Assembly: GCF_000018105.1 (NCBI RefSeq)
Contig: NC_009925.1
Span: forward strand, 3,330,001-3,362,000
Length of the DNA stretch: 32,000 nt
Source: Acaryochloris marina MBIC11017
GTDB taxonomy: Bacteria; Cyanobacteriota; Cyanobacteriia; Thermosynechococcales; Thermosynechococcaceae
Reading direction: 5' to 3'
A program made the position numbers and the translations under genes. Below the pieces are notes generated by a model. That model made no database searches. It saw only the letters and a program-made list of their open reading frames with translations, and had not been told where the DNA came from. Each line of letters starts with the position of its first letter. The first letter of the stretch is position 1. Shown here one piece after another: positions 1-25,839 of the stretch.

Positions 1-3000
1 ACCCGCCTCCACAGAAGAGACTAATCTTCCTCCCCAAGCCCCTTCGGACGCTCCATCCCAGACTTTAGAAGAACCCGCACCTTCAGCCAGCCTCGACATC
101 CCCTACTTCGTCGATGCTGAATTTCGAGGCAGCACCCGTCGCCAATTTGGCGTGCTCAACCTTCGACTCCCCTTCTTCCAAGACGAGAAATCCTTCGCTT
201 TTGCCGACGTCCACTTTGAAGCAGGCAGCAACGAAACCTTCCTGGGGAACCTCGGTCTTGCCTATCGTCGCGTCCTCAATACCGCCGAAGAGAATCCCTG
301 GATCCTGGGCACCCATGCCTTCTACGACACCACCCGCAGTGAAAATGGCTTTCAATATCACCAAGGCAGCCTCGGCGCAGAACTCATTAGCAAGAAATTC
401 GAATTTCGAGTCAACGGCTACCTCCCCGGCAGTAACCCCAATACCGTTGGTCAACGCACCATCAATGATGTCCTCGGCATCCAGCCCAGAGCCAATGGCC
501 TAGGCACTAACATCGTCCGACAAGACATTACCCTCACCGCCCAAGAACGCGCCCTCGCAGGCTTTGATTTTGAAGTCGGTCATCGTCATCACTTTAGTGA
601 CAAAGTCAGCCTCGGTCTCTTTGGTGGCTATTTCTTCTTCGATAGCAGCGAAACCCTCAGCATCGATGGCCCCATGGCCCGTGCCCAACTCGAAGTCCAA
701 GACCCTTTAGGTATGAATGGGGGACTCCTCCAAGTCGGCAGCCGCTTCCGCTTCGATGAAACCCGTGGATCCGAACTCGAGGGCTTTGTCCGCCTCGGAA
801 TTCCCTTTGGTGGCCCCCAACGATCTGAACCTTTGAGCCTAACCCAGCGGTTAGCCCGCCGCCCCATTGAACGCCACTACGAAATCACCACCTTTGCTCA
901 GGACATCAACCGCCCCATCTCCCTTACCGAACTTCAAGCAGCCGTAGTTGGTCAAAGCACCCTCTCGCCCCTAGGCCCACAGATTTCCGCTATCACATCT
1001 CAAGTTGCTCTCAACCCTGCCACCGGACAACCCCTCAATATCTTCTTTGTGGATGGCGATGGCACAGCAGGTGATGGTACCCAAACCAATCCCTTGACAG
1101 TTGCCCAGGCTACTAGCTCCATTACCCAAGCGAATGACGTTTTATTTTTCTTAGATGATGCAGGCTCCATTGATACCCAGACAGGTCTAGGAAATTCCCT
1201 TACTCTCAAAACAGGACAACAGGCCCTTGGCATTGGCACCACCCCCAACTTTGTTTTCACCGTCCCCAATCTGGGTTCAGTCACTGTCTTCGATGCCGGA
1301 CAACCCCAACTGGTCAATGGGGCGAACAACAACGTCCTCACCCTTGCCAACAACAACACCATTGACGGTCTCGCCTTCAACGGGCAAAATACAGCTCCTC
1401 GGGGAATCGCCGCCGTTACAGGCGCCACCAACACCACCATCCGTAACAGCAACCTCAGCAATTTCACCGTCGCTGGCGTTCAGATCACCCCCTCCACCAA
1501 CACCATCATTGATAATGTGGTCTTCAACAACAACGCCACAGACGTTATCGTCAATGCCGCCAACACGACCTTAACCAACGTTGTAAGCAACAACGCCACA
1601 GGTCCCGCCATTCAGATCCTCAATGCCACAGGCACCACCACCCTCACCAATGTCAATATCTCCAATTCAGGTGGAGACGGTCTCCAGTTTGCCAACCCAT
1701 CAGGAACTATCACGGCCACTAATGTCGATATCACCAATGCTGACGATAACGGCCTAGAGATTACGAGCGGAGATGGCACCTTTATCTTTGATGCCACCAG
1801 CTCGATTACCGATACCACCAATGCGGCGCTCAATGTTGTAGGTGGCACCACCACGATTACTTATAACGGCACCATTACTCAAAACAATCCTGCGAGTGCG
1901 GTCAATATCACTGACAAGACAGGAAGCACTACGACCTTTAATGGTCTAGTCACGGCCAATACGAGTACGGCACCTGGAGTAAACCTGACAAATAATACAG
2001 GCAGTACCATTGCCTTTAATGGGGGCTTAGATATTGATACCACCACAGGGACTGGATTTAACGCCACCAATGGCGGTACCGTCAATGTCGCTGCCACAAG
2101 TGAAGATGAATCGGTCACCACAACCAGTGGTACTGCCCTGAATCTCAACAATATAGCGGCCAATATCACCTTTGATTCAGTGTCTTCGACTGGGGGAACG
2201 AATGGCATCAACCTGGATACAGTGATAGGTTCGGTGGGTGTATCTGGAACCACTACGATTGCCAACACCACTGGAGATGGGTTCTTAGCGACCAATAGTA
2301 CTGGAACCTATACCTTTGGTCCCGTAACCATCACCAATGCTGGGCTAGATGGCTTAGATCTCTCGGGAATTAATGATGCCACTACAGTGTTTAACTTGGG
2401 GGCATTGACGATTAATGGCTTTACGGGAACAGGAATTAATCTAGCGGGAGCGAATGTTGGTGTCACAGCTCCCACGGTAGCGATTACGAATACGGGCAAT
2501 GTGGGCACGGGGATTGACCTGACGAATACCACGGGCAATCGAGTGATTACCTTAGGTGATCCAACAAATACGGCTGGAGATACGCCCAGTTCGATTGCGG
2601 GGGTGAATGTTGGGGCGCAATTGAATAATGCCAATGCCAACTTTACCTTTGGCGATGGAGAGCAGACGACCGATACTCCCAGTACGATTGCAGCGACGAC
2701 TCCCATTGATGCTAGTGCGGTGGGGGCAAATGGTACCTATAACTTCCTGGATATTGCCTTTGCAGATAGCCCTGGCCTTCGGTTCTCAGATGTGTTCTAT
2801 GTGGATAATGTGCCCGGTGGTACAGGAACACGCACGAATCCAGCAGATGTGCCTTTAGGAGAGACGAATACTAATCCGAATGATGTGATTGTGTTGGTGG
2901 ATAATTCAGGCACAGATGTCATTGATGCTGCTGGGAGTAATGGGAATAATACGTTCCAATTACAGGATGGTCAGACGTTGGTGAGTTTCTTGAATGGTTC

Positions 3001-4555
3001 TGTGACGGTTGGGGCGGGGGGACCTGCCAATGTGCTGGCGAATATTACCATCACGGATCCCACGGGGAATGGAGCACCGACTTTAACAACGACTGGAGCT
3101 AATACCAATACGGTGACACTAGCCAATAACAACACCATTGATGGTGTGCAGATCGCAACGAATGCTACGAGGGTTGATGCAATTGATGGAACTAATATTG
3201 CTAGCATGACGATTCGGAATAGTGCGATCAGTAGCTCTAGGAGTGGAATTGAACTCACTAATCCTACAGGCACTGTGACCATAGAGAACAATCAAATTAC
3301 GGATGCCGGGTCTCGAGGTATCCATGTAAATGACTTTGCTGATACTGGGGAAGTTACGATTACTGTTGCCAATAATCAAGTCAATAATACGAATAATGAT
3401 GCGATTCATTTTGACACGATTAATAACGATGCTAATGTCACGATCACAGTTAATAACAATCGCATTGATGGTGGCAGTCGGAGAACTGATGATGGCATTG
3501 AGTTTGATGATATTGAAGGGAATGCAGTCGCCAATATTACGATTACCAATAATCAAATCACTGATGTTGCTTTCGAAGGGATCGAATTCGGTTTTTTTGA
3601 GAATAATGCTCAATCGACCATTTTGATTGACAACAACCAAATCACCAATGCAGGGGACATTGGTATTCAATTTGATGATTTAGAAAATAGAACTACTACG
3701 AATATCATCATCTCAAATAATATTCTGACTGATATTGATGAAGAGGGTATTGAGTTTGATTTGATTGAAAACTCGGCCGTGGCGAATATAACAATTGATA
3801 ATAATCAGATAACCAATACAAGCTTGGAAGGTATTGAGTTTGATGATATCGAAAATACTGCTACTGCCACTATCAGAATCTCAAATAATGTTCTCAATAC
3901 TATTGGGCAAGAAGGTATTGAATTTGGCTTTATTGAAAACTCATCCATGGCCAATATTACAATCGATAACAATCAAATAACTAATATAGCTACTGAGGGT
4001 ATTGAATTTGACGATATCCAAAATACTGCCACTGCTAATATTCAAATCGCCAATAATGTTTTTAACACTATTGGTCAAGAAGGGATTGAGTTTGACTTTA
4101 TTGAAAACTCAGCTGTGGCCAATATTACGATTGCAAATAATCAGATGAATAATTTAGGTGCAGATGGTATTGAGTTTGACGATATTGAAAATACTACCAC
4201 TGCCAATATCACGATTAGTGATAACACCATTAATGATGCTGGTGCTCATGGTGTTTTCTTTGACAGAATTGAACAGAATGCAAATGCAACAGTGACTCTG
4301 ACTGGCAATACGATTGCGAATCCAGGGGGAGATGGCATACAAGCAAGACATACGGCAAATACTAACTTCTGTTTGACCTTAAGTACCAACACTGTCAATA
4401 CTCCTGGTGGAGCTGGCTTTCATTTTATTAGTACTGGCGCAGGAGACTTTCAAATCGCAGATCGGGCCAATGTCCTGACTAATAACACAGGTGCCTTTAA
4501 TCCGGCTGATGTAGAGACCAATGCTAATTTTGCGAGTGTGGCAACTTGCCCATAG
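1..4555 (+). CDS. Large surface protein, 5' end outside window: inverse-autotransporter (intimin/invasin-type) outer-membrane beta-barrel followed by two right-handed parallel beta-helix passenger modules
   Basis: Frame 2 is open from nt 2 to the TAG at 4553-4555, so the listed GTG at 152 is internal and the true start lies upstream. nt ~95-900 encode LDIPYFVDAEFRG...FLGNLGLAYRRV...ILGTHAFYDTT...SLGAELISKKFEFRVNGYLP...ERALAGFDFEVGH...GGYFFFD. This fits my recollection of the inverse-autotransporter beta-domain consensus (GlGyR, G.NaFyD, lGaE, aNgYlP, GfDle). Two downstream modules each open with F(F/Y)VD...G.GT.TNP (nt ~1040 and ~2790). Both continue as T/N/G/I-rich 22-28-aa coils typical of parallel beta-helices. 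Confidence 0.8.
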   Translation, partial: PASTEETNLPPQAPSDAPSQTLEEPAPSASLDIPYFVDAEFRGSTRRQFGVLNLRLPFFQDEKSFAFADVHFEAGSNETFLGNLGLAYRRVLNTAEENPWILGTHAFYDTTRSENGFQYHQGSLGAELISKKFEFRVNGYLPGSNPNTVGQRTINDVLGIQPRANGLGTNIVRQDITLTAQERALAGFDFEVGHRHHFSDKVSLGLFGGYFFFDSSETLSIDGPMARAQLEVQDPLGMNGGLLQVGSRFRFDETRGSELEGFVRLGIPFGGPQRSEPLSLTQRLARRPIERHYEITTFAQDINRPISLTELQAAVVGQSTLSPLGPQISAITSQVALNPATGQPLNIFFVDGDGTAGDGTQTNPLTVAQATSSITQANDVLFFLDDAGSIDTQTGLGNSLTLKTGQQALGIGTTPNFVFTVPNLGSVTVFDAGQPQLVNGANNNVLTLANNNTIDGLAFNGQNTAPRGIAAVTGATNTTIRNSNLSNFTVAGVQITPSTNTIIDNVVFNNNATDVIVNAANTTLTNVVSNNATGPAIQILNATGTTTLTNVNISNSGGDGLQFANPSGTITATNVDITNADDNGLEITSGDGTFIFDATSSITDTTNAALNVVGGTTTITYNGTITQNNPASAVNITDKTGSTTTFNGLVTANTSTAPGVNLTNNTGSTIAFNGGLDIDTTTGTGFNATNGGTVNVAATSEDESVTTTSGTALNLNNIAANITFDSVSSTGGTNGINLDTVIGSVGVSGTTTIANTTGDGFLATNSTGTYTFGPVTITNAGLDGLDLSGINDATTVFNLGALTINGFTGTGINLAGANVGVTAPTVAITNTGNVGTGIDLTNTTGNRVITLGDPTNTAGDTPSSIAGVNVGAQLNNANANFTFGDGEQTTDTPSTIAATTPIDASAVGANGTYNFLDIAFADSPGLRFSDVFYVDNVPGGTGTRTNPADVPLGETNTNPNDVIVLVDNSGTDVIDAAGSNGNNTFQLQDGQTLVSFLNGSVTVGAGGPANVLANITITDPTGNGAPTLTTTGANTNTVTLANNNTIDGVQIATNATRVDAIDGTNIASMTIRNSAISSSRSGIELTNPTGTVTIENNQITDAGSRGIHVNDFADTGEVTITVANNQVNNTNNDAIHFDTINNDANVTITVNNNRIDGGSRRTDDGIEFDDIEGNAVANITITNNQITDVAFEGIEFGFFENNAQSTILIDNNQITNAGDIGIQFDDLENRTTTNIIISNNILTDIDEEGIEFDLIENSAVANITIDNNQITNTSLEGIEFDDIENTATATIRISNNVLNTIGQEGIEFGFIENSSMANITIDNNQITNIATEGIEFDDIQNTATANIQIANNVFNTIGQEGIEFDFIENSAVANITIANNQMNNLGADGIEFDDIENTTTANITISDNTINDAGAHGVFFDRIEQNANATVTLTGNTIANPGGDGIQARHTANTNFCLTLSTNTVNTPGGAGFHFISTGAGDFQIADRANVLTNNTGAFNPADVETNANFASVATCP
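3743..4246 (+). repeat. Three tandem copies of a 168-bp unit (two 84-bp / 28-aa sub-repeats each) inside the beta-helix gene; more diverged copies extend from ~3270 to ~4450
   Basis: Unit starts read directly at 3743 (gagggtattgagtttgatttgattgaaaactc), 3911 (gaaggtattgaatttggctttattgaaaactc) and 4079 (gaagggattgagtttgactttattgaaaactc), exactly 168 nt apart. Protein repeat: ANITI(D/A)NNQ(I/M)(T/N)N...(E/D)GIEFDDI(E/Q)NT(A/T)TA(T/N)I.I(S/A)NNV(L/F)NTIGQEGIEF(G/D)FIENS.. Confidence 0.9.
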
Positions 4556-9727: not shown

Positions 9728-10486
9728 CTATCGTTTATGTTCTGGATTCTTAAAGTCTGTTTTGCACCCTGCATCCCAAGCATCCGGTAAATTGCCATGA
9801 GCTGGAATCCCCCCATTGTCTTTCAGGAGGCGGGCCATATGCATACAGTTCCAGGCTAAGAAAGTGGTATTACGGTTGGTGAAATCATTCTCGGGTCCAC
9901 CTGATCCGGGATCGAGATAAGAGGGGCCGGGACCGACTTCCCCTAACCAGCCAGCATCCACCTGGGGGGGGATGGTATAGCCAATATGGGAGAGGGAAAA
10001 CAGAATATTCATGGCGCAATGCTTCACCCCATCCTCATTGCCCGTAATGAGAGTTGCACCCACTTTTCCGTAATCTCGATATTGGCCTTTGTCGTTGAGG
10101 AGATGGGTATAGCCATATATGCGCTCTAAGACTCGGTTACAAACAGAGCTTTTCTCCCCCAGCCACACGGAGGTACATAGCACCAAAATATCCGTGGCAT
10201 CCACCTCTTTTTGAAGTTGGGGCCAGTCATCTTTATCCCATTCATCGGTTTGGGACATATCTAAGCCCAAACCAGCCGGGATGTCATAATCCACGGGGCG
10301 AATAATCTTAGTTTGCACCCCATTAGCTTCAAAAATTGTTTGGGCAATTTTAATCACCCCTTCGGTATGGGATAAAACGGGGGTGCGATTCAGGGTGCAG
10401 TTGAGAAAGAGGGCTTTGAGATCGTCATATTTGGCCGGGGCATTTTGGCATTGGTGCTGAGTGATGTTCGTAAGCTGTTCAGACAT
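9728..10486 (-). CDS. Flavodoxin-like-fold NAD(P)H-dependent FMN reductase family protein
   Basis: LKALFLNCTLNRTPVLSHTEGVIKIA...ILVLCTSVWLGEKSS...ITGNEDG resembles the flavodoxin-like NADPH-FMN reductase layout (nucleotide loop right after beta-1). Good SD (GAGGA) upstream of the ATG. The family label rests on memory only. Confidence 0.6.
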   Translation of the reverse strand: MSEQLTNITQHQCQNAPAKYDDLKALFLNCTLNRTPVLSHTEGVIKIAQTIFEANGVQTKIIRPVDYDIPAGLGLDMSQTDEWDKDDWPQLQKEVDATDILVLCTSVWLGEKSSVCNRVLERIYGYTHLLNDKGQYRDYGKVGATLITGNEDGVKHCAMNILFSLSHIGYTIPPQVDAGWLGEVGPGPSYLDPGSGGPENDFTNRNTTFLAWNCMHMARLLKDNGGIPAHGNLPDAWDAGCKTDFKNPEHKR

Positions 10487-10548
10487 AATTCCTCTGGGTA
10501 GATGTATAAACGTCTTATAGGTTCAAGGTGTAGGCCGCACCAGACAGC

Positions 10549-12501
10549 CTAAATCAATTCTGGGTCAGACATGATTTCTACGAGTGCAGGCCCCTGATAA
10601 GCCAGGGCCTGGGCCATAGCATCATCTAGTTCGTCCGGTTGGGTGACTCGGATTCCAAATCCACCGCAATTCTGAGCATATTGGGAAAAATCAGGATTGT
10701 GTAAGGAGGTTTGCCAGACATCCCATTCCCCCGCTCTCTGCTCCTTAGAAATTTTGCCCAACTGATCGTTATGGAGCAGGATATGGGTGATATTCATCTG
10801 GTACTTCACGGCGGTGGTAAATTCCGCCAAATATTGTCCAAACCCGCCATCACCTGATACAGACACAATGGGACGCTTATGGCCTGCGGCAGCCCAAGCG
10901 CCCATGGCAGCCGGGAAGGCAAACCCGATGGACCCGAGATATCCCGACATTAAAACGGACTGAGCCTGACACTCAAAATATCGACCAAAGGAATAGGTGT
11001 TGTTGCCTACATCCACCGCAATTACAGCATGAGCAGGCACCCATCGCGTCATGGCGGCAAAAATAGCGGCAGAGTTTAGCCCTTGTCCTCGGTCATCCAA
11101 TTCTCGCCGGGCTTTTTCTGCCCGCCAGATGGCCCAACGTTCGGCGATTTCAGATTGCACATCCTCCGTATCCACCTGCATCGAGAGGGCGGTCTTGAGC
11201 TGCTCCACCACAATACTAATTTCCCCCCAAACGGGAACTTCGATGGGATGAAATTTACCTAGGGCCAGCGGATCAAAATCTACCTGAATAATCGGTTTGC
11301 CTGGATAGATGCCCGTGTGATTAGAAAAAGAAGCCCCCAATACCAACAGCACATCCGCCTCATTCATAAACCAGCTGGCAATGGGAGTACCACTGCGCCC
11401 CAATACTCCACATCCCAGAGGATGGTCATCGGCAATCTGCCCTTTACCTTTAAAGGTTGTTAGGACGGGCGCGCCCAAAAGTTCAGCTAGTTCTATCACC
11501 GCAGGCATATGAAACCGAGCGCCATGACCCACAATGATGACGGGGCGGCGTGACTGTTTCAGTTTGCCAATGGCCTGCTGTAAAGACTCCGGGGGTGGCG
11601 CGATTTGCAGCGGGGTGATGCGTCCAGTGGGCGTTGCCGCAGGGACATCAACAGCAGGCTGGACTTGAATCTCATCGGGAAAAATCAGGTGAGAGACATT
11701 GCGTTCTAAGAGAGCATGCTTGATCGCCAGAGTCATCAATTCGGCATGCTTGCTGTGACTAAGAACCGTTTGACTCCAAGCTGCCACCCCACTAAAGGCG
11801 GCAGATAAATCACATTCTTGAAAGTTACCAGTCCCCAAGACTTGAGAATTGACCTGTCCGGTTAAAGCCAAGATGGGGGCACAATCGACTTTGGCGTCCC
11901 ACATTCCGGTCAGGAGGTTGGTTGCACCGGGGCCAGCAATGGTCAAACAAGCAGCGGGGGTACCCGTGAGTTTGGCATAGGCGGAGGCAGCAAAGGCTGC
12001 GGCTCCTTCATGGCGAATGCCAATATAGGTGAGCTTGCCCTGTTCTTCCTGACGGCGTAGGGTATCAGCCAGTCCTAAATTCGAATGGCCTACCATACCA
12101 AATACATGGGTAACGCCCCAATTCACCATGGTTTCAGCCATCACATCGCTAACGGTGCGGATGTGCGGTTTCTCCACGGGTAAACCCACATAGACACCGT
12201 CATCTCGCACCTCAACCGGAAAGGTTTCGAGGGCATCATCGACATCCAAGCCACCGGGCGGTTGCCCCGTCAGTGGGCAATAATCCCACCCATGCCAAGG
12301 ACAGCGCAACAGGCCATTTTCAATAGAGCCTTCGCCGAGGGGGCCGCCTTGGTGAGGACAGCGATTATCAAGGGCACCATACTGGCCTTGGTGATGGGTT
12401 AAGGCCAGACTTTTATGACCTGCAACGACGGTTTTGACCCGACCTTCGGGTAGTTCGTCTAGGTCTAAGACCCGAAACCACTGAGGGGTTATCTCAGGCA
12501 T
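10549..12501 (-). CDS. Fusion protein: N-terminal Rieske [2Fe-2S] domain + thiamine-diphosphate-dependent enzyme (pyruvate oxidase / acetolactate synthase superfamily)
   Basis: Rieske ligand boxes CPHQGGPL and CPWHGWDY lie in the first ~100 aa. The ThDP N-domain follows (GVTHVFGMVGHSNLGLAD...IRHEGAAAFAASAYAKLTG...IAGPGATNLLTG). The ThDP-binding motif is GDGGFGQY...ITHILLHND near the C-terminus. The frame is continuous across the junction. AAGGAG SD precedes the ATG. Confidence 0.9.
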   Translation of the reverse strand: MPEITPQWFRVLDLDELPEGRVKTVVAGHKSLALTHHQGQYGALDNRCPHQGGPLGEGSIENGLLRCPWHGWDYCPLTGQPPGGLDVDDALETFPVEVRDDGVYVGLPVEKPHIRTVSDVMAETMVNWGVTHVFGMVGHSNLGLADTLRRQEEQGKLTYIGIRHEGAAAFAASAYAKLTGTPAACLTIAGPGATNLLTGMWDAKVDCAPILALTGQVNSQVLGTGNFQECDLSAAFSGVAAWSQTVLSHSKHAELMTLAIKHALLERNVSHLIFPDEIQVQPAVDVPAATPTGRITPLQIAPPPESLQQAIGKLKQSRRPVIIVGHGARFHMPAVIELAELLGAPVLTTFKGKGQIADDHPLGCGVLGRSGTPIASWFMNEADVLLVLGASFSNHTGIYPGKPIIQVDFDPLALGKFHPIEVPVWGEISIVVEQLKTALSMQVDTEDVQSEIAERWAIWRAEKARRELDDRGQGLNSAAIFAAMTRWVPAHAVIAVDVGNNTYSFGRYFECQAQSVLMSGYLGSIGFAFPAAMGAWAAAGHKRPIVSVSGDGGFGQYLAEFTTAVKYQMNITHILLHNDQLGKISKEQRAGEWDVWQTSLHNPDFSQYAQNCGGFGIRVTQPDELDDAMAQALAYQGPALVEIMSDPELI

Positions 12502-12992
12502 AGGCTGTACTCCTTATGGGATGAGCGGCGATGGCTGGCTCAGCACTTTTTGTCAGGTTGATGCTGGTTTATAGGCTCCAGTCTGAGTATGCAGGTTGGG
12601 TGGCGTATTCAGATGATAATTTGCTGAAGTCCGGTGATGAAGTAGGCAAGGTTTGCCTAAAAATATGCTGAGTATGGCGATTCTCATCAGTGAAAATGCT
12701 CCCTTGTCTTGTACCGATCGGTAATGATATTTCCATAGCAAGAGGTTGGGTGAGTTGATGCAATGTAACGGTGGATGAGTCTCCGATTTCGCTTTACCAT
12801 GAGTCAGAAATCTGGTTGGTGGCCGTTATCTAGCGTTTATTGCAAGATAGCGCTTCAGTATTGGGTTGTAATCGCAAAGTATGACCGTTCCACAAAAGCT
12901 GTGGAGATGCCCTTAGAGATGAATGGTCGATTTCAAACGTTTACTCTGGAAGTTTAAAATCGATCACCAGACTCAAACAGTGGTGCTGTCGT

Positions 12993-16336: not shown

Positions 16337-18112
16337 TTAGCTTTGGGCTTGCGACGTCATGGTGCCCGAGTAGACCAACCCTTTTTTCATATCTAACGTA
16401 AGGTGGGTGCCATCCCGAATCATCCGAGTTGCATTTTCAACCCCGACGATGACTGGAATTCGCAACCGCAGCCCTAATACGGCAGCGTGACTGTCCATAC
16501 CGCCGACTTCAGTAATGATGCCAGCGGCTTTGCGAATCGCATCGACATGGCTAGCGTCAGTTTCCTTCGCTACTAAAATATCGCCCCGATTAAAGCCTTT
16601 AACACCGTTGGATGCTGTAATGACGCGAGCTAAGCCGCTCACAGAGCCATTGCCAATGCCAGTGCCCTGACCCATAACAGCGGTGACAATCTCGACTTTG
16701 ATAAAGTCTGTGGACCCCGCGACCCCCTGGAGAGTGCCTGCGGTCACCACTACTAAGTCGCCTTCTTCCACTAAGCCTTTCTCCTGGGCCACATTGAGTG
16801 AGGCTTGTAGGGTTTCATCAATGGAGGGCAAATTGAGAACCAGCAACGGCTGTACACCCCAAACCATTTGCAGTTGGCGAGCGACCTCTACATGGGGCGT
16901 CACAGCCAGAATGGGAATATTGGGCCGATATTTGGAAACGTTGCGTCCGGTCGATCCAGTTTTGGTAAAGGTGAGAATCGCTTTGGCTTTGAGCTGAGTG
17001 GCGATATGCCCAACCGCTTGGCTAATGGCACTGGGAATGGCAGTTTCTGAGGTGTCTAGGGCAGTACGATTTTGAATATTTTTTTCATAATCAATCCGCT
17101 CTGCGATTTTGGCCATGGTCGCCACCGCTTCCACAGGATAGTTGCCGACGGCGGCTTCATTGGACAGCATCACCGCATCAGTGCCGTCCAAAATGGCGTT
17201 GGCCACGTCAGAGACCTCTGCCCGCGTGGGTCTGGGGGAATTGACCATGCTATCCAGCATTTGCGTGGCCGTAATCACAGGAATGCCGAGACGGTTTGCC
17301 GTGGCAATCAACCGCTTTTGCAGAATCGGGACATCCTCTGCAGGCAGCTCAACCCCTAAGTCACCCCGAGCGATCATTACCCCATCACATAGGCTGAGAA
17401 TCTCTTCCATTTGGGTAATGGCTTCATGTTTTTCGATCTTGGCAATGACGGGGATGGATTTGCCTGCGTTAGCAATGATTTCTTTAATCTCGATCACGTC
17501 TGCTGGATTGCGGACGAAGCTGAGGGCAACCCAATCGACACCATGGGTCAGACCGAATTGTAAATCTTCGCGATCTTTATCGGTGAGCGCTTTGACGGAT
17601 AAATAGACTCCTGGAAAGTTCACACCTTTAGAGTCCGAGAGCTTGCCTCCCACAACGACGCGGCAATTCAAGGTCTTAGAAGATTGATCTACAGATTCAA
17701 CGATCATCTCGACTCGGCCATCATCGAGAAGAATGGTGGCTCCTGCAGACACTTCGTCAGCCAGTTTGGAATAGGTGACCATGCTGCTGGTTTGCGTGCC
17801 GGGAATAGCCTGACTCGTCAAGGCAAAGGGATCACCGTTTTTGAGGGTGATGGGGCCGTCCGCGAATTTACCAAGGCGGATTTTAGGCCCTTGCAGGTCT
17901 TGCAGAATGGCAACGGGCTGGTTCATCTCATAAGAGAGTTGCCGAATCAGACGAATGGATCGCAGATGATCGTCATGGGTGCCGTGGGAGAAGTTGAGGC
18001 GGAGGGTGGTGGCCCCTGCTTCAATGACCGCCCGCAGCATATCTGGCTTGGAGATGGCTGGCCCTACGGTGGCCACAATTTTGGTACGACGGTCGGTCTC
18101 AGGCAAGGACAT
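16337..18112 (-). CDS. pyk: Pyruvate kinase with C-terminal PEP-utilizer (swivel/mobile) domain
   Basis: RRTKIVATVGPA, LRLNFSHG, MIARGDLGVE and TQMLDSM are classic PK motifs. The C-terminal ~110 aa (GLARVI...ILVAKETDASHVDAIRKAAGIITEVGGMDSHAAVLGLRLRIPVIVG) is the PEP-utilizer mobile domain seen in cyanobacterial and Bacillus-type PKs. The track start at 18124 is TTG, so I prefer the ATG at 18112. Confidence 0.95.
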   Translation of the reverse strand: MSLPETDRRTKIVATVGPAISKPDMLRAVIEAGATTLRLNFSHGTHDDHLRSIRLIRQLSYEMNQPVAILQDLQGPKIRLGKFADGPITLKNGDPFALTSQAIPGTQTSSMVTYSKLADEVSAGATILLDDGRVEMIVESVDQSSKTLNCRVVVGGKLSDSKGVNFPGVYLSVKALTDKDREDLQFGLTHGVDWVALSFVRNPADVIEIKEIIANAGKSIPVIAKIEKHEAITQMEEILSLCDGVMIARGDLGVELPAEDVPILQKRLIATANRLGIPVITATQMLDSMVNSPRPTRAEVSDVANAILDGTDAVMLSNEAAVGNYPVEAVATMAKIAERIDYEKNIQNRTALDTSETAIPSAISQAVGHIATQLKAKAILTFTKTGSTGRNVSKYRPNIPILAVTPHVEVARQLQMVWGVQPLLVLNLPSIDETLQASLNVAQEKGLVEEGDLVVVTAGTLQGVAGSTDFIKVEIVTAVMGQGTGIGNGSVSGLARVITASNGVKGFNRGDILVAKETDASHVDAIRKAAGIITEVGGMDSHAAVLGLRLRIPVIVGVENATRMIRDGTHLTLDMKKGLVYSGTMTSQAQS

Positions 18113-18252
18113 GTATGATTTCAAAAAAGTTTAGGCAGTAAGATGAACAATCAACAGGGTTGCCCATCAACTTAACAGTTTAGGCTGAGACGTTACCCCA
18201 AGCGAATTTTTGGCGGAATTCCTGTCGATAGATTGATAACACGGAGATCAGG

Positions 18253-18696
18253 GTGAAGTTAACGACACGGGGACACTATAGTGTAAAGGCGTTGCTGGAT
18301 TTGAGTTTGCAGCCCAATTTTGGACCGGCATCGGTGAATGTGATCTCACAACGGCAGTCTCTCCCAGCCCCCTATTTGGAAAAGCTGCTGATAGAGTTGC
18401 GACAAGCGGGTTTGGTGCGGTCGGTTCGGGGCTCGAAAGGAGGCTATCAGTTGGCCCGTCCCCCGGTCCAAATTTCCTTAGGGCACATTTTGGAAGCGGT
18501 TGGAGAAACGGTTGAACCTTTTACGGAAAAGTCGGCTGCAACCCAGCAGGCTGAAGATTGGGTCACCCTGACCCTTTGGAAACGCCTACACCAAAAACTC
18601 AAGGAATCCCTCTACAGTATTTCCTTAGAAGATCTTTATTTTGATGCCCGCAGTTGGCAAGCGGCACAGGGGGCTGAGACGAGTTTTGTCGTCTAA
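18253..18696 (+). CDS. Rrf2-family transcriptional regulator
   Basis: MKLTTRGHYSVKALLDLS...ISQRQSLPAPYLEKLLIELRQAGLVRSVRGSKGGYQLARP is the Rrf2 winged-helix signature. GTG start with GGAGA 6 nt upstream. No three-Cys cluster is visible, so it is probably not an Fe-S-binding member. Confidence 0.9.
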   Translation: MKLTTRGHYSVKALLDLSLQPNFGPASVNVISQRQSLPAPYLEKLLIELRQAGLVRSVRGSKGGYQLARPPVQISLGHILEAVGETVEPFTEKSAATQQAEDWVTLTLWKRLHQKLKESLYSISLEDLYFDARSWQAAQGAETSFVV

Positions 18697-18753: not shown

Positions 18754-20004
18754 TTAGCCTGAAGAATCTGGGGCGACTGTTGTTGAAGAATCTGGAGTGA
18801 TGGTTGCAAGAATGACTATATCTTGAAAATCATAGGAATCATCACCGGGGCTACCACTGCCTAATTCAAATAGAAAAATAACTTGGTTGTCGGCAATGGT
18901 CACCCTTTGGTTGGTATCAATATAGCCTTGAGTAATTGTAGAAATAGGTAACTGATTACCGTAAGGTGTATAGTCCGGAATTGAATCCCCATTCTGTAGT
19001 GTTAAAACACGATTAGAATTATTGTCCGATGATACAGAAATGTTTGGAGAACATGATCCACCAGTGGTTGATGCACCATCAGTGGCTAATTCAGTTCCGG
19101 GCGCTACTGAGATATTCGTTTGCACACCTAAAGGAGCCACTGTTGAGAGCGCAGATTGGCTGATTTGCTGGCCATGAGTGAGTTCATAAGCTGCTGAAGT
19201 ATTGATGGGGGGGCCGCCTACACCACAAGTTATTTCACTTCCTAAGACCCTAATATCCATCTTAGATTTTTCTAAGATCGTTACTGTGGAACCACCTGTT
19301 ACGGTAACAATCCGCGAATTACGGGTTGCAACTGTTGTGTTAGCGGTATAGATATCAGAACCCTGCAATGGAGTATCGTACACTCCAGCATGAAACAGTT
19401 TAGCCATTTTGCCTGTGGAATCTACACAAGCTCCAAACCCCAAGTTGCCATTCGCAGTCCAGTTTGTGTCTGGGCAGCTAGGAGAAGTACTATTATCCTG
19501 AATGGAATCAATCAGTGGTTCATGACTCCAGTTAGCTAGGTCGGATGGATCTGCATAGGTGCCATCACCATTGTGTTTTGGTCCCCATCTATACACTACT
19601 TGGGGACCTAACCATAAGTTGTTAGGGGATGGAGCGGTGTAATAAACGACTGACTGCTGGACATCAGTAAAACCAGGCATTTTCAGCATAAGAACTGATT
19701 CCGCTCCACTGGGTAGAGCGGTATTAAAACCCGGAGGAGCTGGTTCGTTGTCTGCATCAAGAAGAATTCTGTCAGCGTGACGAACTTCGGTAGCCATGAA
19801 ATCTAAAGATCGATTGAGTTCTACTCTTCTCTCATTTTGAGCATTGGCAACTTGGCTAGAGCGGAAGATAGAGACTAATCCAAATCCACCTATGGCTACA
19901 ACGCCTAGGCTAATTACAGCCGCAACTAATAACTCAGGGAGTGTAAATCCTTGTGAGGTGCGTTTTTGATAAATGGCCTGTTTTATAGGGAATTTAGTTT
20001 TCAC
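18754..20004 (-). CDS. PilW-like minor pilin / pseudopilin with large C-terminal domain
   Basis: Prepilin motif QG|FTLPELLVAAVISLGVVAIGGFGLV (Gly-1, Phe+1, Glu+5, hydrophobic helix). It is followed by ERRVELNRSLDFMATEVRHA, which resembles the PilW N-domain. GTG start, with no in-frame ATG upstream of the cleavage motif. Confidence 0.75.
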   Translation of the reverse strand: MKTKFPIKQAIYQKRTSQGFTLPELLVAAVISLGVVAIGGFGLVSIFRSSQVANAQNERRVELNRSLDFMATEVRHADRILLDADNEPAPPGFNTALPSGAESVLMLKMPGFTDVQQSVVYYTAPSPNNLWLGPQVVYRWGPKHNGDGTYADPSDLANWSHEPLIDSIQDNSTSPSCPDTNWTANGNLGFGACVDSTGKMAKLFHAGVYDTPLQGSDIYTANTTVATRNSRIVTVTGGSTVTILEKSKMDIRVLGSEITCGVGGPPINTSAAYELTHGQQISQSALSTVAPLGVQTNISVAPGTELATDGASTTGGSCSPNISVSSDNNSNRVLTLQNGDSIPDYTPYGNQLPISTITQGYIDTNQRVTIADNQVIFLFELGSGSPGDDSYDFQDIVILATITPDSSTTVAPDSSG

Positions 20005-20253
20005 TTATATCAATTGCGAATAAAATCATGAATAGAACATTGTTTGTCAAAGTTCACGGTACTTGAATGGCTTTGAGAAAGCTGTTATTCAAATCACGAA
20101 ATTGACATAGGCATTATTTTTATGCCGTTGGAAAAATAATTTTACCATTGTTATAGAAAGTTTGGCTTGCCCTGAAAGCACCTGACAAATCAACTGTGTG
20201 TTGATGCTAAGTACTCCTAAAAGAAGCTGATGATGGGTTCTTATGTAGTTCAC

Positions 20254-20832
20254 TTATGATGAATGGCAATTACTTGCGTCTGCCTGGGCGGTAGTGGGTG
20301 GATGATTTCCTCTAAATTCACCCATTCTAATAATTCCAATTCCTGCAGTAATCGCTAGACAACGCATCCCTTGAGATTGATCGGGATGGAAAAACACTAA
20401 GACATTACCGGAAGAGGTCGATCCTTTCGGGGAAAACTGTATATCGTCGTTGGTTGCAGCGATCAAAGTGACAGCAGAAGGACTTGTGCCTCCACCCAGT
20501 TGTGTTAAATCCCGCGTTCCTGTTGGTAAGCAGCTTTGAGGATTGGCTATGATAGAAGAACTGCTAATGCTAAGGCTACATTGTTGACTGGTGCGAATGG
20601 CGGTTGCTTGGGCTTCTTTTAGGGCTCCCTCTACTTGTTTGGAAACATCTTCTATTCTTTTGTTGTTGATCCAGCCTAAAAAGCTAGGAGCTGCTAGGGC
20701 AGCAAATATGCCTGAAATCACTACGATCGCTAGGACTTCAGGCAATGAAAACCCAGAGCTTTTGTGCTGATATTGAGGCAATATCATGAAATTTTCTTGC
20801 GAGTTATCATTATCGAAATCAACTAAGGGCAT
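20254..20832 (-). CDS. GspH/FimT-like minor pilin / pseudopilin
   Basis: SG|FSLPEVLAIVVISGIFAALAAPSF prepilin motif. GspH-like features are ...VEGALKEAQATAIRTSQ... and the C-terminal RCLAITAGIGIIRMG. An alternative ATG at 20787 gives a 12-aa leader and removes the 10-nt overlap with the upstream gene. Confidence 0.75.
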   Translation of the reverse strand: MPLVDFDNDNSQENFMILPQYQHKSSGFSLPEVLAIVVISGIFAALAAPSFLGWINNKRIEDVSKQVEGALKEAQATAIRTSQQCSLSISSSSIIANPQSCLPTGTRDLTQLGGGTSPSAVTLIAATNDDIQFSPKGSTSSGNVLVFFHPDQSQGMRCLAITAGIGIIRMGEFRGNHPPTTAQADASNCHSS

Positions 20833-21347
20833 TCAAGCGATTTATCAGGAATGACCTTAGTTTGAACGACAGCAATAGGGATATTATCAGCAGATACAAC
20901 TTGATATTCCAGGCTCAGTACATTGAATGGAGCATCAGAGGGGAGATCTGGGGTACGTATAAGGGTATATGGCCGATTACCAATAGCGCTCAGTTTGTCA
21001 GTATCTACTGGTGCATTTGCATTAATTTCATCTTGCAAGAGAGCCGCATATCCTGATGTGTTATCAATAGCCTGACAGGCTGATAGGTTAACGTCTTCAC
21101 CTAAACCGAATCGCTTGGATTCAAATCGAACCCTTTCTATATCTTCTTGGATCCAGGTTGTGGCTTCACTGAGTTCTTGCCCTTTCACTTTAAAGACTGT
21201 GGCTGTCACTAACGCTTGCATGGCAGTACTAATAAAGCCAACAATTACTAAGAGACCAACTAAGACTTCCACTAAGGTAAATCCAACATGTGGATGTTCA
21301 TTTGACTTGAATTTTGTAATCATTGGACTTATAAATTCTGAGAACAT
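20823..21347 (-). CDS. PilV-like minor pilin / pseudopilin
   Basis: VG|FTLVEVLVGLLVIVGFISTAMQAL prepilin motif, then ...EATTWIQEDIERVRF, which resembles PilV. Small size (174 aa). Confidence 0.7.
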   Translation of the reverse strand: MFSEFISPMITKFKSNEHPHVGFTLVEVLVGLLVIVGFISTAMQALVTATVFKVKGQELSEATTWIQEDIERVRFESKRFGLGEDVNLSACQAIDNTSGYAALLQDEINANAPVDTDKLSAIGNRPYTLIRTPDLPSDAPFNVLSLEYQVVSADNIPIAVVQTKVIPDKSLECP

Positions 21348-21440
21348 GTCATCAGCCCTGTTTTTCTGTTAAAAATTTTTAATCATTTTAGTTGTCATAA
21401 AAGTTGATGATAAAAATGAACGATTTGGATCGATTTATCA

Positions 21441-22781
21441 CTAATTTACAGAACGCTCGTTGGTGCCCCATGCTTGAATTGGATTGAGTTGTGGTGGATA
21501 CAGTATGTTTATGGGTGCATTACTCCATTTACGCGAGCTTGTTGGGTTGATTTCTTGTACATTATCTAGAACTGGTGTGTGCACGTTCCCATTGTTGGAC
21601 CAGCTATTCACCCAAAAAACGCTCGTATTAAAAATTTCACGGCCACTAGCATTTGTGCCACATATATTTGGGGTAGTCGGCAAACCACCCCCAGGATTGC
21701 TTTCAAAGTTAGAAGTATTATTGACATTATGGGATGGTGCGTGAATAAAGACATTACATAAAACGGTGCCTTTATTTAAGAGGATATTGCCGCTACCTTG
21801 GCCATATATTTTTACTTGAAATTCTTGGCAATTTTCTGGAGAACCTCCGCAACGAATTACAGTATTTTGTAGATCAATATTCCCGTCTACCCAAATTTCA
21901 ACATTCTGATTGGCATTAACATCGATGAAATTGGTTGCACTATTATTGGGAGTTTCTAGGCCGATGGGATTAAAATATTCAGATATACTGCTATCCAACT
22001 GGATGGTGTTATTTGTTGGATCTCTTAAAGGTAAAGAAGGAGCGGGGAGAGTAGGAAGAGACGGTATGCCAGGAATTAATATACTCAGGTTCTTTGTAAA
22101 GTGGTTATTTTGAGGTAGTGCAGTGATAGAGCTACTACAAGATCCCACAATGTCTGTGTTTATAGACCCAACAGTAGCGTCATTGGCAACCCACAGACCT
22201 GCAAGGGGGAACTCTTCTACTGAAAAATCTACTTCTAATTCAGAAATTGATTCACTGGGTTGGTCTTCGTTAACCCGACCTTGAACTCGAAGTGTGGAGT
22301 TTTGATCATCATAGGTTAACAATCTATATTGGCCTTGACTAGGTTCACTAGGATTAATATTTTGCCATTCTCTGTTCGCTAAGCTCACGATCTCAGCTGT
22401 GCGATTAATCCCACATTCTGCCAAGATATTAGGAATATTGTTAGGTAACGCCCAGCTCTCAGTAGAGTTGCCGCTATCTGAACAAGTACCATCAGCATTT
22501 CTAGTGGGGGGTGTGTTCAGATCTGTTGTACAGGCTGGATAGTTAGCGATTGCACGATGCTGATTCATTAAAGCTCGGATTTCATTTACCCCGGTTTCTG
22601 CGGCGTTGAGGCTTTTGGCGGTATCTTTTTGTGCGATCGCACTTACCTGACTATCTTGCGATCGCAATAGCATCGTCAGCCCTACCAAAAGGATAATCAG
22701 CCCCATGCCAATGGCGACAGGCAGCGCAAAGCCTGCTTGGCTTTTGCGACATTTCAGAGAGTATAAAATCCAGTCTTTCAT
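21441..22781 (-). CDS. PilX_N-type pilus-associated protein (possibly HpsA-like)
   Basis: QAGFALPVAIGMGLIILLVGLTMLL lacks Glu+5. SLNAAETGVNEIRAL follows, which is the PilX N-terminal pattern. The track start at 22799 is TTG; the ATG at 22781 (MKDWILYSLKCRKSQAG...) is preferred. It is the first gene of the minus-strand pilin module. Confidence 0.65.
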   Translation of the reverse strand: MKDWILYSLKCRKSQAGFALPVAIGMGLIILLVGLTMLLRSQDSQVSAIAQKDTAKSLNAAETGVNEIRALMNQHRAIANYPACTTDLNTPPTRNADGTCSDSGNSTESWALPNNIPNILAECGINRTAEIVSLANREWQNINPSEPSQGQYRLLTYDDQNSTLRVQGRVNEDQPSESISELEVDFSVEEFPLAGLWVANDATVGSINTDIVGSCSSSITALPQNNHFTKNLSILIPGIPSLPTLPAPSLPLRDPTNNTIQLDSSISEYFNPIGLETPNNSATNFIDVNANQNVEIWVDGNIDLQNTVIRCGGSPENCQEFQVKIYGQGSGNILLNKGTVLCNVFIHAPSHNVNNTSNFESNPGGGLPTTPNICGTNASGREIFNTSVFWVNSWSNNGNVHTPVLDNVQEINPTSSRKWSNAPINILYPPQLNPIQAWGTNERSVN

Positions 22782-23036
22782 GGCTGAGAGTCTATGCAAA
22801 CCTAGAGGTAAGGCATTCTATCCAATACAGATTTTGTAGAATGTTATACAAACTATACCGAATATCCCAATAAAAATTAAGTATTTTTCCCCACGACAAT
22901 CAACGATTTTAGGTATAGCCATTCTAGCAGTTCGCTTCTATTCTGTTGGGCAATAATTTCATAAAACTAGACCTTTACTGTCCCTCGTTTCAGAATCATC
23001 AAGCATTTTGTCTGTGAATAAATAAAAACGCTGCTG

Positions 23037-23052
23037 TGTGATCTAGATCACC
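23037..23052. promoter_or_regulatory. Candidate CRP/SyCRP1-type binding site TGTGATCTAGATCACC in the divergent pilin control region
   Basis: Read directly: TGTGA-N6-TCACC, 9 of 10 half-site positions of the TGTGA-N6-TCACA consensus. The core GTGATCTAGATCAC (23038-23051) is a perfect 14-bp palindrome. It lies ~256 nt from ATG 22781 and ~650-710 nt from the plus-strand module start. Confidence 0.5.
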
Positions 23053-23762
23053 CAAGTTGGTGATTTCGATTCTTAGACTAGACTTTCAAGAAAAATAATT
23101 TGTACAGCTCTATATGCTTAGATCATAGAGGTTGTGCTCGGTTCTTTACCTAACTGATCCGGCAGACTTTTGTACTTCCGCATTGAGTTAGATTCATTCT
23201 TGTCATCTCAAACGGACTAATCATTTAAAAAAGCTTTGTAATGAAATAGAGCTCAAGATTTTTATTGTCACTTGATTTCACTTGCCAATAAAAAATTAGT
23301 CTTAATTTTATCTGGTTTTTTATCTTGCCTATATTTCCTCTAAGATCATTATTTTGCCGAGGAATTATATTTAAAAATTGTATATTTCAGTGTCTGAAAT
23401 GTATGACTTATAAGATTTCCGAGATATCACTGAGGTGACTAAGGAAGATTTTATATACAGTTATTGTCAGGGATTGCAAACTCGTAAGGCAATATCTACC
23501 GGACTTAGTTCTGGCATTGGTGCGTGGGAGCTGCTGAGGCCAGCATAGGAGTTAATCAAGAGCTACTGATTAGTGAGATCTTGATGTGTTTTTGCATGGC
23601 GATTTTCTTGACATACAAAACATTATTCATCGTCCCTTATAGACCGTGATCAGTTTTGTTCACGTTGAGTCCATCCTAGGAATTAAGAATAGAGTTTATC
23701 TCATGGGTCAGTACAAGTTGTCTTTGGTACTTTACAACCGCTTAATTAAATATCAGCAGCAA

Positions 23763-24281
23763 ATGGATTCTGATGAAGGATTCTCGCTTATTGAAGTCAT
23801 AGTTGTGATTGCACTTACGGCATTTTTAGCTGCTTTTGCCGTGCCAGCTATCACTTTTGGTAACAATCCGCTTAGAGATTCATCCGACCGCATTGCCGCG
23901 AGTATGAAGTGGGCAAGAGCGCAGGCAATGGCTTCGACGTCTGCAGTTCGGATTCGCCCGATCTCAAATACAGAATTTGTGATGGAGCGAGCGAATAGAT
24001 GCACCGAGGCGAATAATGCCAACTGGACCATTATTAGTGACCAAGTCGAAAGAGATGGGCAATTGGTCTATGAAGATTTAAGTCTAGATACACCAGCACA
24101 ACTGACTACCGTTACTGAGGATGGAGTGGCTGCGACCCCTACAACCTGGGATATCTGTTTTAACACTCGCGGAATAGCGGATAAAACCCTGGTTTTAACA
24201 ATGGAAGATACGGGGAATAGTGACCAACGAACCATGACTATTTTTCGAGGTGGCACGGTGGATCTTACTGCTATCAATTAA
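23763..24281 (+). CDS. GspH/FimT-like minor pilin / pseudopilin
   Basis: MDSDEG|FSLIEVIVVIALTAFLAAFAVPAI prepilin motif. GspH-like features are RIAASMKWARAQAMAS and the C-terminal RTMTIFRGGTVDL. ATG 23763 gives a typical 6-aa leader; alternative starts are ATG 23703 and GTG 23646 (the track start). Confidence 0.75.
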   Translation: MDSDEGFSLIEVIVVIALTAFLAAFAVPAITFGNNPLRDSSDRIAASMKWARAQAMASTSAVRIRPISNTEFVMERANRCTEANNANWTIISDQVERDGQLVYEDLSLDTPAQLTTVTEDGVAATPTTWDICFNTRGIADKTLVLTMEDTGNSDQRTMTIFRGGTVDLTAIN

Positions 24282-24327
24282 CGGTAACTCTTTAGACATG
24301 CGAAATGTATCGTAGATCGAGAAATTT

Positions 24328-24768
24328 ATGAAAGCTCATAGACCTCACTCCCTAAATCCATTTTGGTTCAGAATGTTGCGGACATCACGTACGGACAACA
24401 AAGGATTAACTCTGGTAGAAGCACTGGTTTCGTTGCTAATCTTTTTTGTCGCTGCAGCATCGATTGTGCCTGTTTTTTTGAACTACACAATTTCTACGAT
24501 TAATAACGAAAGACGAACTGGAGGGATTGCTGTCGCCCAGCAAGTGCTAGATGGCTTGCGTCAGGTGGATCCAACCACTCTAGATGCTACTGGCACATTC
24601 ACTCTGACGGATGTTTCTTACTTGGGTAAGACTTACACCCCTATCGTTACTTACTGCCAGAATCCTGCATTCTGCACTAACCCAGACTCACGGCACATCA
24701 CACTTCAGGTATTCCACAATGGCAACGAAATTTACCAAGCTGAAACTGTTTTCACCAACCTCCAATAA
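24328..24768 (+). CDS. PilV-like minor pilin / pseudopilin
   Basis: KG|LTLVEALVSLLIFFVAAASIVP has Leu at +1 and Glu at +5. Followed by GIAVAQQVLDGLRQ. Small size (146 aa). An alternative ATG at 24373 gives an 11-aa leader. Confidence 0.7.
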   Translation: MKAHRPHSLNPFWFRMLRTSRTDNKGLTLVEALVSLLIFFVAAASIVPVFLNYTISTINNERRTGGIAVAQQVLDGLRQVDPTTLDATGTFTLTDVSYLGKTYTPIVTYCQNPAFCTNPDSRHITLQVFHNGNEIYQAETVFTNLQ

Positions 24769-25771
24769 GGGTTTTACGCTGGTTGAACTATTAGTCACCA
24801 CTTTAATTGCTACCGTTGTTCTGGTTTCTTCTCTTGGGCTGATTAGCGACCAACGTAGGCGCTTTGTCTCCGATCAGGTGCGTGCAGAGTCTAATCAAAC
24901 CTTACGTGTGGGTTTGGATCTCATCGGTGCTGATATTAAAAACACAGGAGACTTTTTAGAGACAGACATTAATTTGCCTGTGGTGACTGTGATTGATGGT
25001 GCTTCAGGAGCGCCAGATGAAATTATTCTGCAGCGCAAACTGATCTCTGACACATTGACTGTTTGTGAAGATGTGAACGCTGGCGCGACAACAACCATCA
25101 CCGTTGCAGTGAGACCAGGTGCGGGTGACTGCCCCATCTATTCAGATGGTAATAATGATGATTTGAACGACCCACTCACCCTGGCTAGAAGAGAGCGCTG
25201 TGAACAAGACGATGTTGCTGGATGTGCGCGGAATGCGGCACTAGCCGCGAATACTTGCGATGACGAATGTGTAACAGCTTACATCTATGACCCAGTAAAC
25301 CAAGAGGGTGAATTTTTTAGTTATATGTTTGAGGAGCCTGATGCGTCGCCTAATCCAACTTTAAATCGGATTTATTTAGGAGACAGCGCTACTTTTGCTA
25401 ACACCTATCAATTGGCCAATAGACCCATTATCTATCTCCTTGAGCAGCGACATTATCGTCTGAATAACAATGTGTTACAGCTGAGTGTTAATCGAGGTAA
25501 TTTCGTATCAATCGTTAACCAGGTTGCAGATTTCCAGGTGCAAGCCCAATTGACGACTAATCCCAATCCCCAAGACTCCTTTAACTCTAACCCTTCAGTC
25601 AGTGGCGATCCAGGAGTGTATCAGCAGACGACTCCGTGGCAAACCTTGCAATTCTTACAGGTAGATTTGCAGTCTGTCGATCCATCTGAGTCTGACTTAA
25701 CTGAATTAGATGCCGATCAGCGTCAGATTGCTTCCAGATTCTATCCCCGTAACGCTCGGTCCCAAGATTAA
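24719..25771 (+). CDS. PilW-like minor pilin / pseudopilin
   Basis: MATKFTKLKLFSPTSNKG|FTLVELLVTTLIATVVLVSSLG prepilin motif, then QTLRVGLDLIGADIKNTG, which resembles PilW. The track ORF begins at 24611, but that extension lies inside the upstream gene. ATG 24719 is the only in-frame ATG just upstream of the cleavage motif. Confidence 0.75.
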   Translation: MATKFTKLKLFSPTSNKGFTLVELLVTTLIATVVLVSSLGLISDQRRRFVSDQVRAESNQTLRVGLDLIGADIKNTGDFLETDINLPVVTVIDGASGAPDEIILQRKLISDTLTVCEDVNAGATTTITVAVRPGAGDCPIYSDGNNDDLNDPLTLARRERCEQDDVAGCARNAALAANTCDDECVTAYIYDPVNQEGEFFSYMFEEPDASPNPTLNRIYLGDSATFANTYQLANRPIIYLLEQRHYRLNNNVLQLSVNRGNFVSIVNQVADFQVQAQLTTNPNPQDSFNSNPSVSGDPGVYQQTTPWQTLQFLQVDLQSVDPSESDLTELDADQRQIASRFYPRNARSQD

Positions 25772-25839
25772 GTATTTGTTGCCCCTTTGCCTTCCTATTC
25801 TAGATTCTTTGCCTTACTTTTTAGAGACTTATTACAGTT

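Follow-up and report, generated by a model that had tools for sequence, protein, structure and literature searches.

How does an enzyme of the pyruvate oxidase (POX) type dispose of its electrons when it carries an iron-sulfur (Fe-S) domain of its own, and what does the flavoprotein encoded beside it contribute? These questions are raised by two adjacent genes of Acaryochloris marina MBIC11017, located within a 32,000-nt stretch of the genome that was analysed as a whole and is referred to here as the window. The first gene (10549..12501, minus strand; defined by open reading frame, domain search and AlphaFold) encodes a 650-residue protein that joins a Rieske [2Fe-2S] domain to a core of the type that depends on thiamine diphosphate (ThDP) as well as on flavin adenine dinucleotide (FAD). 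The second (9728..10486, minus strand) encodes a 252-residue flavodoxin-like flavin mononucleotide (FMN) protein of the RosB clade. We put the probability that the fusion is a 2-oxo-acid dehydrogenase with an Fe-S outlet and an FMN partner at roughly 70%, and the RosB-like protein appears to stand in for a glutamate synthase (GltS)-like partner present in most other bacteria with the fusion.

A Rieske domain on a pyruvate oxidase-type core

The fusion gene starts with an ATG just after AAGGAG, and its reading frame is intact, in agreement with the initial annotation, which had described one continuous frame joining a Rieske domain to a three-domain ThDP enzyme and had named the motifs CPHQGGPL, CPWHGWDY, GDGG and LHND, all of which are present. 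Pfam recognises Rieske (residues 7-81, E 1e-16), TPP_N (116-233), TPP_M (307-435) and TPP_C (497-643), and the AlphaFold model has a mean pLDDT of 91.8 and a pTM of 0.90. On the minus strand of the window, the Rieske domain (residues 7-105) lies at 12187..12483, with its ligands C48, H50, C67 and H70 encoded within 12292-12360. It is followed by the ThDP-binding PYR domain at 11803..12156, which houses the catalytic E165, the F227-Q228 pair and a family-specific GHS motif (H139), by the middle, FAD-binding domain at 11197..11583, and by the PP domain at 10573..11013 with its GDGG...N578 motif and the invariant K583, K586 and E587. The closest named homologues are Acaryochloris proteins, 97-98% identical. 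Since the same architecture, 648-660 residues in length, recurs in more than 100 independent proteins and 80 GTDB loci, the fusion is not a frameshift artefact, and the union of a Rieske domain with a PoxB/POX-type ThDP-FAD core is confirmed as real.

By both sequence and fold, the closest solved relatives of the core are E. coli PoxB, L. plantarum POX (LpPOX) and C. glutamicum PQO, at 24-27% identity. PoxB and PQO (PDB 3EY9, 3EYA, 9EV3-9EV6) give the best sequence match (E 8e-69) and a fold TM-score of 0.89 by target, and share with the fusion the three-domain ThDP/FAD fold, the catalytic glutamate, the Phe-Gln pair, the GDG...N motif and a glutamate in the C-terminal helix. LpPOX (PDB 1POW, 2EZ4) is the top Foldseek match. 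Its FAD-site residues G220-G222, T244, R264, G284 and D306 align to stretches conserved across the fusion family (G325-H-G327, T349-F-K-G-K-G, R369, G389 and D408), and the sequence motifs for FAD binding are kept relative to both LpPOX and PoxB; E165, F227-Q228 and the GDGG...N578 motif are likewise conserved in the family.

The active site differs from these relatives at several positions, among which H139, N195, Q556, K583 and K586 are invariant in the fusion. H139 takes the place of PoxB D27 and LpPOX G35, K583 that of PoxB F465 and LpPOX F479, Q556 that of a PoxB methionine (27% identity overall), N195 that of LpPOX H89, and N500 that of LpPOX D396. Compared with LpPOX and SpxB, K583 replaces the F479 relay, N195 replaces H89, and H139-S140 stands in place of the G35-S36 phosphate loop. 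The fusion falls below every NCBIfam equivalog cut-off, including those of NF006591 for PoxB/PQO (304 against 792 bits), TIGR02720 for LpPOX (265 against 638), TIGR00118 for acetohydroxyacid synthase (AHAS) and the best-scoring model, NF006377 (392 against 742 bits). It is not an orthologue of AHAS (IlvB) or of cyanobacterial OgdA and lacks their signature motifs (GMHG, MVRQWQ / GGEN-type loop, YGLIEWK). The Acaryochloris genome holds separate IlvB-like (C1:3116797) and OgdA-like (C1:1848981) genes, 28-30% identical to the fusion, which is therefore not the housekeeping enzyme.

The added Rieske head is of the dioxygenase-ferredoxin type, with T4moC and BphF as its closest solved relatives. 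The ligands form a CxH...CxxH set, without a disulfide, and are invariant in 79 of 79 loci; the linker that follows is fixed at 9-10 residues (78 sequences). At the other end, the chain stops five residues past D646 in 78 of 78 sequences and aligns only to residue 528 of the 572 in PoxB, so that the lipid-binding membrane anchor of PoxB and PQO is absent.

Sister ThDP proteins carry other heads at the same place, namely rubredoxin (P0247, P0254, P0265), a CDGSH-4Fe4S-CDGSH-Rieske array (P0242) or two Rieske domains (P0117). The rubredoxin- and CDGSH-headed sisters are 41-60% identical to the fusion and, like it, begin with a fused one-electron carrier; they differ in the Fe centre, and no partner recurs in the few gene contexts that were read. 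The nearest of the sisters, P0247 and P0255, share the GHS motif and K583 with the fusion. That a single clade of cores bears interchangeable one-electron carriers is the strongest reason to see the head as an electron port. Together with the invariant ligands, the kept FAD motifs and the absent anchor, these heads support the initial proposal of a POX-type core with a fused Fe-S outlet.

At least 566 matches to the fusion are found in GTDB species genomes, spread over cyanobacteria, Acidobacteriota, Actinomycetota, Myxococcota, Planctomycetota, Bacteroidota and other phyla (66-87% identity among the matches listed), and the best 120 database relatives all share its architecture. The spread is patchy: none of 300 evenly drawn cyanobacterial genomes has the fusion, yet three of seven Acaryochloris congeners do. 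We found no paper describing the Rieske-ThDP architecture in a literature search that left out most subscription journals, and the family is thus widespread without a published study that we could find. Several Thermoleophilia fusions sit in open frames of 880-930 residues, perhaps of the CDGSH type. A metagenome-assembled genome (MAG) of Nitrospirales has an in-frame TGA (L031:6301-6303) where a conserved Gly codon closes the Rieske domain, so that the fusion is cut precisely at its linker; this single case is probably a sequencing error or a nonsense mutation.

Two alternative FMN partners

The downstream gene is separated from the fusion by exactly the 62 nt first reported (10487..10548, minus strand), a gap that contains a GAGGA ribosome-binding site and in which no terminator-like site was called. 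Its product had been described as a flavodoxin-like FMN reductase. The flavodoxin-like, FMN-type part of this description stands, and the protein matches Pfam FMN_red (E 4e-7, 30 bits against a cut-off of 24); the protein belongs to the RosB clade, however, and is probably not a canonical NAD(P)H:FMN reductase. Its sole sequence match in the Protein Data Bank is RosB (E 2e-37; 1e-49 with a family profile), the 8-demethyl-8-aminoriboflavin-5'-phosphate synthase of Streptomyces davaonensis (PDB 5MJI, 5MLD). In Foldseek, RosB is again first (E 5e-15, TM 0.70, 31% identity), with ArsH/WrbA-type reductases at E 3e-7 or worse, 12-19% identity and TM of about 0.45-0.55. The two proteins share the flavodoxin-like core, the phosphate loop and a GNEDG-x-x-H loop (GNEDGxKH in the window) that is invariant in 68 relatives of the neighbour. 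RosB uses FMN, with glutamate as amino donor, and is said to be defined by its specialised C-terminal 52 residues (PMC11039241). The alignment of the neighbour ends at RosB residue 205-206 of 257, leaving these 52 residues unmatched, and the neighbour is therefore RosB-clade, not RosB. As a recurring neighbour family, rosA, rosC or rib genes were found in none of 81 fusion and 82 RosB-like loci, a count of neighbourhoods for which no genome-wide search was made.

The initial annotation had linked the fusion to this flavoprotein by adjacency. Neighbours were counted by tblastn at 81 loci, comprising 80 from GTDB and the Acaryochloris window. The most frequent is a Rieske-headed protein with the FMN domain of glutamate synthase (35 loci), followed by DUF5996-like (25) and RosB-like (16) proteins and by a four-gene cassette whose centre is a ferric-reductase-like membrane protein with a fused Rieske domain (about 10). 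At no locus do the GltS-like and RosB-like genes occur together. In whole-genome searches, the GltS-like protein is absent from the 15 RosB-adjacent genomes and from Acaryochloris, and the RosB-like gene occurs in only one of the 35 GltS-adjacent genomes. Among the 30 genomes with neither gene adjacent, 23 hold the GltS-like gene elsewhere, and six of the other seven hold the RosB-like gene. Overall, 56 fusion genomes have the GltS-like gene only, 22 the RosB-like gene only, two both and one neither; independence would predict about 17 with both and about 16 with neither. Fisher P values for this table count related genomes as independent and so exaggerate the significance. On a revised tree of the fusion, from which L053_2275 was left out as a different protein, the partner distribution needs five changes. 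Adjacency of RosB-like gene and fusion arose in separate clades, where the RosB-like subfamilies differ (about 90% versus 60% identity) and gene order varies, and the co-occurrence holds in six genomes where the genes are unlinked.

An independent sample of 150 genomes was drawn from Thermoleophilia, the class that holds the Solirubrobacterales matches. The RosB-like gene is present in 10 of 10 fusion genomes that lack the GltS-like gene, against a background of 33 of 137 genomes without the fusion (24%). In the other three of the 13 fusion genomes the GltS-like gene adjoins the fusion, so that at least one partner is present in 13 of 13, although strict exclusion failed. The dependence is one-way: RosB-like genes are often found where there is no fusion.

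The majority partner resembles the synthase domain of GltB and ferredoxin-dependent GltS (PDB 1EA0, 2VDC, 1LLW). In 28 of 28 sequences it keeps the residues aligned to GltS K937, R957, K999 and T1030, which we take to be 2-oxoglutarate and FMN residues, along with the three cysteines of the [3Fe-4S] cluster. It lacks E978 and the amidotransferase domain and, unlike GltB, is a stand-alone, Rieske-headed protein. The link to a flavoprotein is thus real and stronger than adjacency suggested, but the RosB-like protein is a minority partner that appears to replace the Rieske-GltS-like enzyme, and a role as direct electron acceptor is just one of two readings. The distribution of genes shows two unrelated FMN enzymes to be interchangeable partners of the fusion. 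What this locus newly contributes is that the neighbour is of the RosB clade and that it is complementary in distribution to the GltS-like gene.

Proposed mechanism and alternatives

The 650-residue protein is best described as a putative 2-oxo-acid dehydrogenase, soluble, with ThDP and FAD as cofactors, and belonging to the PoxB/POX lineage. Judging from its homologues, it would decarboxylate and oxidise a 2-oxo acid. By analogy with POX chemistry, the enamine would be oxidised by FAD, followed by one-electron steps to the Rieske cluster, and the two electrons would leave one by one through this built-in cluster rather than to quinone by way of a membrane anchor. The FMN partner would most likely act upstream, converting glutamate or a similar amino acid to a 2-oxo acid, and the fusion would then turn an acidic 2-oxo acid, probably one such as 2-oxoglutarate, into a carboxylate and CO2. 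A glutamate/2-oxoglutarate setting is suggested because the closest characterised relatives of both partners bind FMN and use glutamate or 2-oxoglutarate. In cyanobacterial KGD, a lysine has been docked to 2-oxoglutarate, by docking only (PMC10418658), and the invariant K583 and K586 of the fusion lie on the same helix. These two lysines and the relatives of the partners are the reasons for tentatively favouring a two-step oxidation, in which an amino acid becomes a 2-oxo acid and this in turn a carboxylate while the Rieske heads serve as outlets, to which we give a little under an even chance.

In cyanobacteria, the electrons probably drain into a membrane cassette. An MsrQ-like cytochrome b-Rieske protein is found in 13 of 15 fusion-bearing cyanobacteria versus 1 of 300 other cyanobacteria. 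In Acaryochloris its gene (C1:4191872-4192933) belongs to a four-gene cassette at L174:11026-13701 (G000:C1:4191025-4193700), which encodes a small membrane protein, a second small protein, the MsrQ-like cytochrome b-Rieske protein and a protein with a single transmembrane segment and a Cys motif. The Rieske domain of the cassette is 35% identical to that of the fusion. A full NAD(P)-independent catabolic module, in which either FMN enzyme converts glutamate to 2-oxoglutarate, the fusion yields succinate and CO2, and the Rieske-tagged proteins feed a membrane cytochrome, would be a speculative and rather unlikely extension.

Several observations weigh against the dehydrogenase with an Fe-S outlet and FMN partner. 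The core is only 26-27% identical to POX/PoxB and misses every NCBIfam cut-off. In POX and PoxB, a phenylalanine relays electrons from ThDP to FAD; it is the lysine K583 in the fusion, and POX H89 is an asparagine, as in AHAS. The comparison with the KGD lysine is with a docked pose only. Searches of 10 Thermoleophilia-clade genomes did not turn up the cytochrome b cassette. On the side of the partners, the tree offers four independent pairs on well-supported branches, nearly all concordant, and because there are only four the sign test stays short of significance (p 0.125). Two of the three GltS-positive Thermoleophilia fusion genomes also carry a RosB-like gene, RosB-like genes often occur without the fusion (33 of 137 Thermoleophilia; the fusion is near 9 of 82 metagenomic RosB-like loci), and most of the surveyed genomes are incomplete MAGs.

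The main rival to the two-step oxidation is a direct wire, the model of the initial annotation, in which a 2-oxo acid, possibly pyruvate, reduces FAD, then the Rieske cluster and then the FMN of the partner, ending in O2 or quinone (RosB-like) or in the reductive amination of 2-oxoglutarate (GltS-like). This model accounts for the partner requirement just as well, each of the two partners is an FMN protein, the neighbour's next relatives in structure are WrbA/ArsH-type reductases, and the RosB-partnered Thermoleophilia-clade genomes, which showed no cytochrome b-Rieske cassette, need another sink. Ferredoxin-type Rieske clusters have potentials of about -150 mV, however, and would donate electrons only weakly to a reductive amination when ammonium is low; RosB resembles the neighbour far more than the reductases do; and the basic active site is not explained by this model alone. 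A complex prediction of the Rieske domain with the RosB-like dimer and FMN scored 0.00 and is used as evidence neither way. We regard the direct wire as possible, though less likely than the two-step route.

The protein might instead be a non-redox, ThDP-dependent lyase or carboligase whose FAD is structural, as it is in AHAS or glyoxylate carboligase, and the Rieske head would then be a redox sensor or regulator. This explanation is kept open because the Phe relay (F479/F465) is lost, and a GPGATN motif as in AHAS and good alignment to AHAS and HACS structures agree with it. It is nevertheless improbable, given that POX, PoxB and PQO come first by sequence and fold, that three different electron-carrier heads occur in the clade, that the partners are all redox proteins and that separate IlvB-like and OgdA-like genes serve the genome.

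Patchy spread across phyla, the abundance of lone RosB-like genes and the small number of independent events would also suit two functionally uncoupled genes that travel together in a mobile redox or stress island. Such an island is very improbable in view of adjacency in separate clades, with different RosB-like subfamilies and variable gene order, and of co-occurrence between unlinked genes, and it does not predict the complementarity with the GltS-like gene. Least credible is flavin modification, in which the RosB-like protein would oxidise FMN at its 8-methyl group and the free-thiamine step of RosB would be taken over by the ThDP enzyme, so that a modified flavin is made or removed: the neighbour has no close solved relative other than RosB, whose assays include thiamine, a requirement that is disputed (PMC9516700, PMC9713284), but the RosB-specific C-terminus is unmatched (PMC11039241), rosA, rosC and rib genes do not recur in the neighbourhoods, and most fusion genomes have the GltS-like Fe-S flavoenzyme in place of a RosB-like protein.

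Upstream region and genomic surroundings

The spacer upstream of the fusion is 491 nt long and contains ORFs of only 60-64 residues, so the initial claim that it lacks a convincing ORF holds. A non-coding stretch at 12529..12681 (minus strand) is conserved by blastn and alignment in four Acaryochloris genomes, in one of which a ZIP-like gene separates it from the fusion. Promoter, terminator and Rfam scans of the spacer gave no signal exceeding shuffled sequences, with no Rfam match, no sigma-70 site on the coding strand and no canonical NtcA box. The conserved stretch is likely a promoter or leader, in which a known motif was not identified. A gene for a ZIP-like membrane protein also adjoins the fusion in several cyanobacteria (L178:3484-4300; L002, L003, L004, L007, L013, L014; L175:5694-6425), and the Acaryochloris orthologue is at another place in the genome (C1:929702-930424), where it converges on the gene of a heavy-metal P-type ATPase.

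DUF5996-like proteins flank the fusion in 25 of 81 loci (for example L013:8064-8990 and L050:5111-5974) and RosB-like genes in 9 of 82; no such gene was found in the Acaryochloris genome, and no paper mentioning DUF5996 was found. Mainly in actinobacterial loci (L018, L036, L064, L071, L075, L080), a pair of ECF sigma factor and small anti-sigma factor lies less than 5 kb from the fusion. The genes that flank the fusion in the window (FAD monooxygenase, creatininase-like, acyltransferase and VWA proteins) do not recur near it in the 81 loci. Neither does a pair 4-6 kb away, formed by a pyruvate kinase with a phosphoenolpyruvate-utiliser swivel domain (16337-18124, minus strand) and a divergent Rrf2 regulator (18253-18696, plus strand).

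Elsewhere in the window, a 1467-residue protein (152-4555, plus strand) combines an inverse-autotransporter beta-domain fragment with beta-helix repeats, and the GC content of its gene falls from about 0.5 to 0.39 in the distal part. A low-GC cluster (0.38-0.45) of type IV prepilin/GspH-like genes occupies both strands of 18754-28344. At the cassette locus, L174:1165-1509 (plus strand) encodes a secreted-looking protein of 114 residues in which NPCAAK/DPCAAK is repeated in tandem about 12 times; a YHS-domain gene lies just downstream.

Implications for the family

Known POX-type enzymes pass their FAD electrons to O2 or to quinone, and an exchangeable Fe-S head built into the enzyme would give this fold a third outlet. 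The swap of partners is, as far as we have found, the first functional clue for those RosB-like flavodoxins, many in number, that have no part in making roseoflavin, and it predicts that RosB-like and Rieske-GltS-like proteins should do the same job. Acaryochloris can be cultured and both genes encode small, soluble proteins, which makes a direct test possible. If the glutamate module is true, it would show which activity is ancestral in the large RosB-like family and would offer some cyanobacteria one more way to bypass the 2-oxoglutarate dehydrogenase that they lack.

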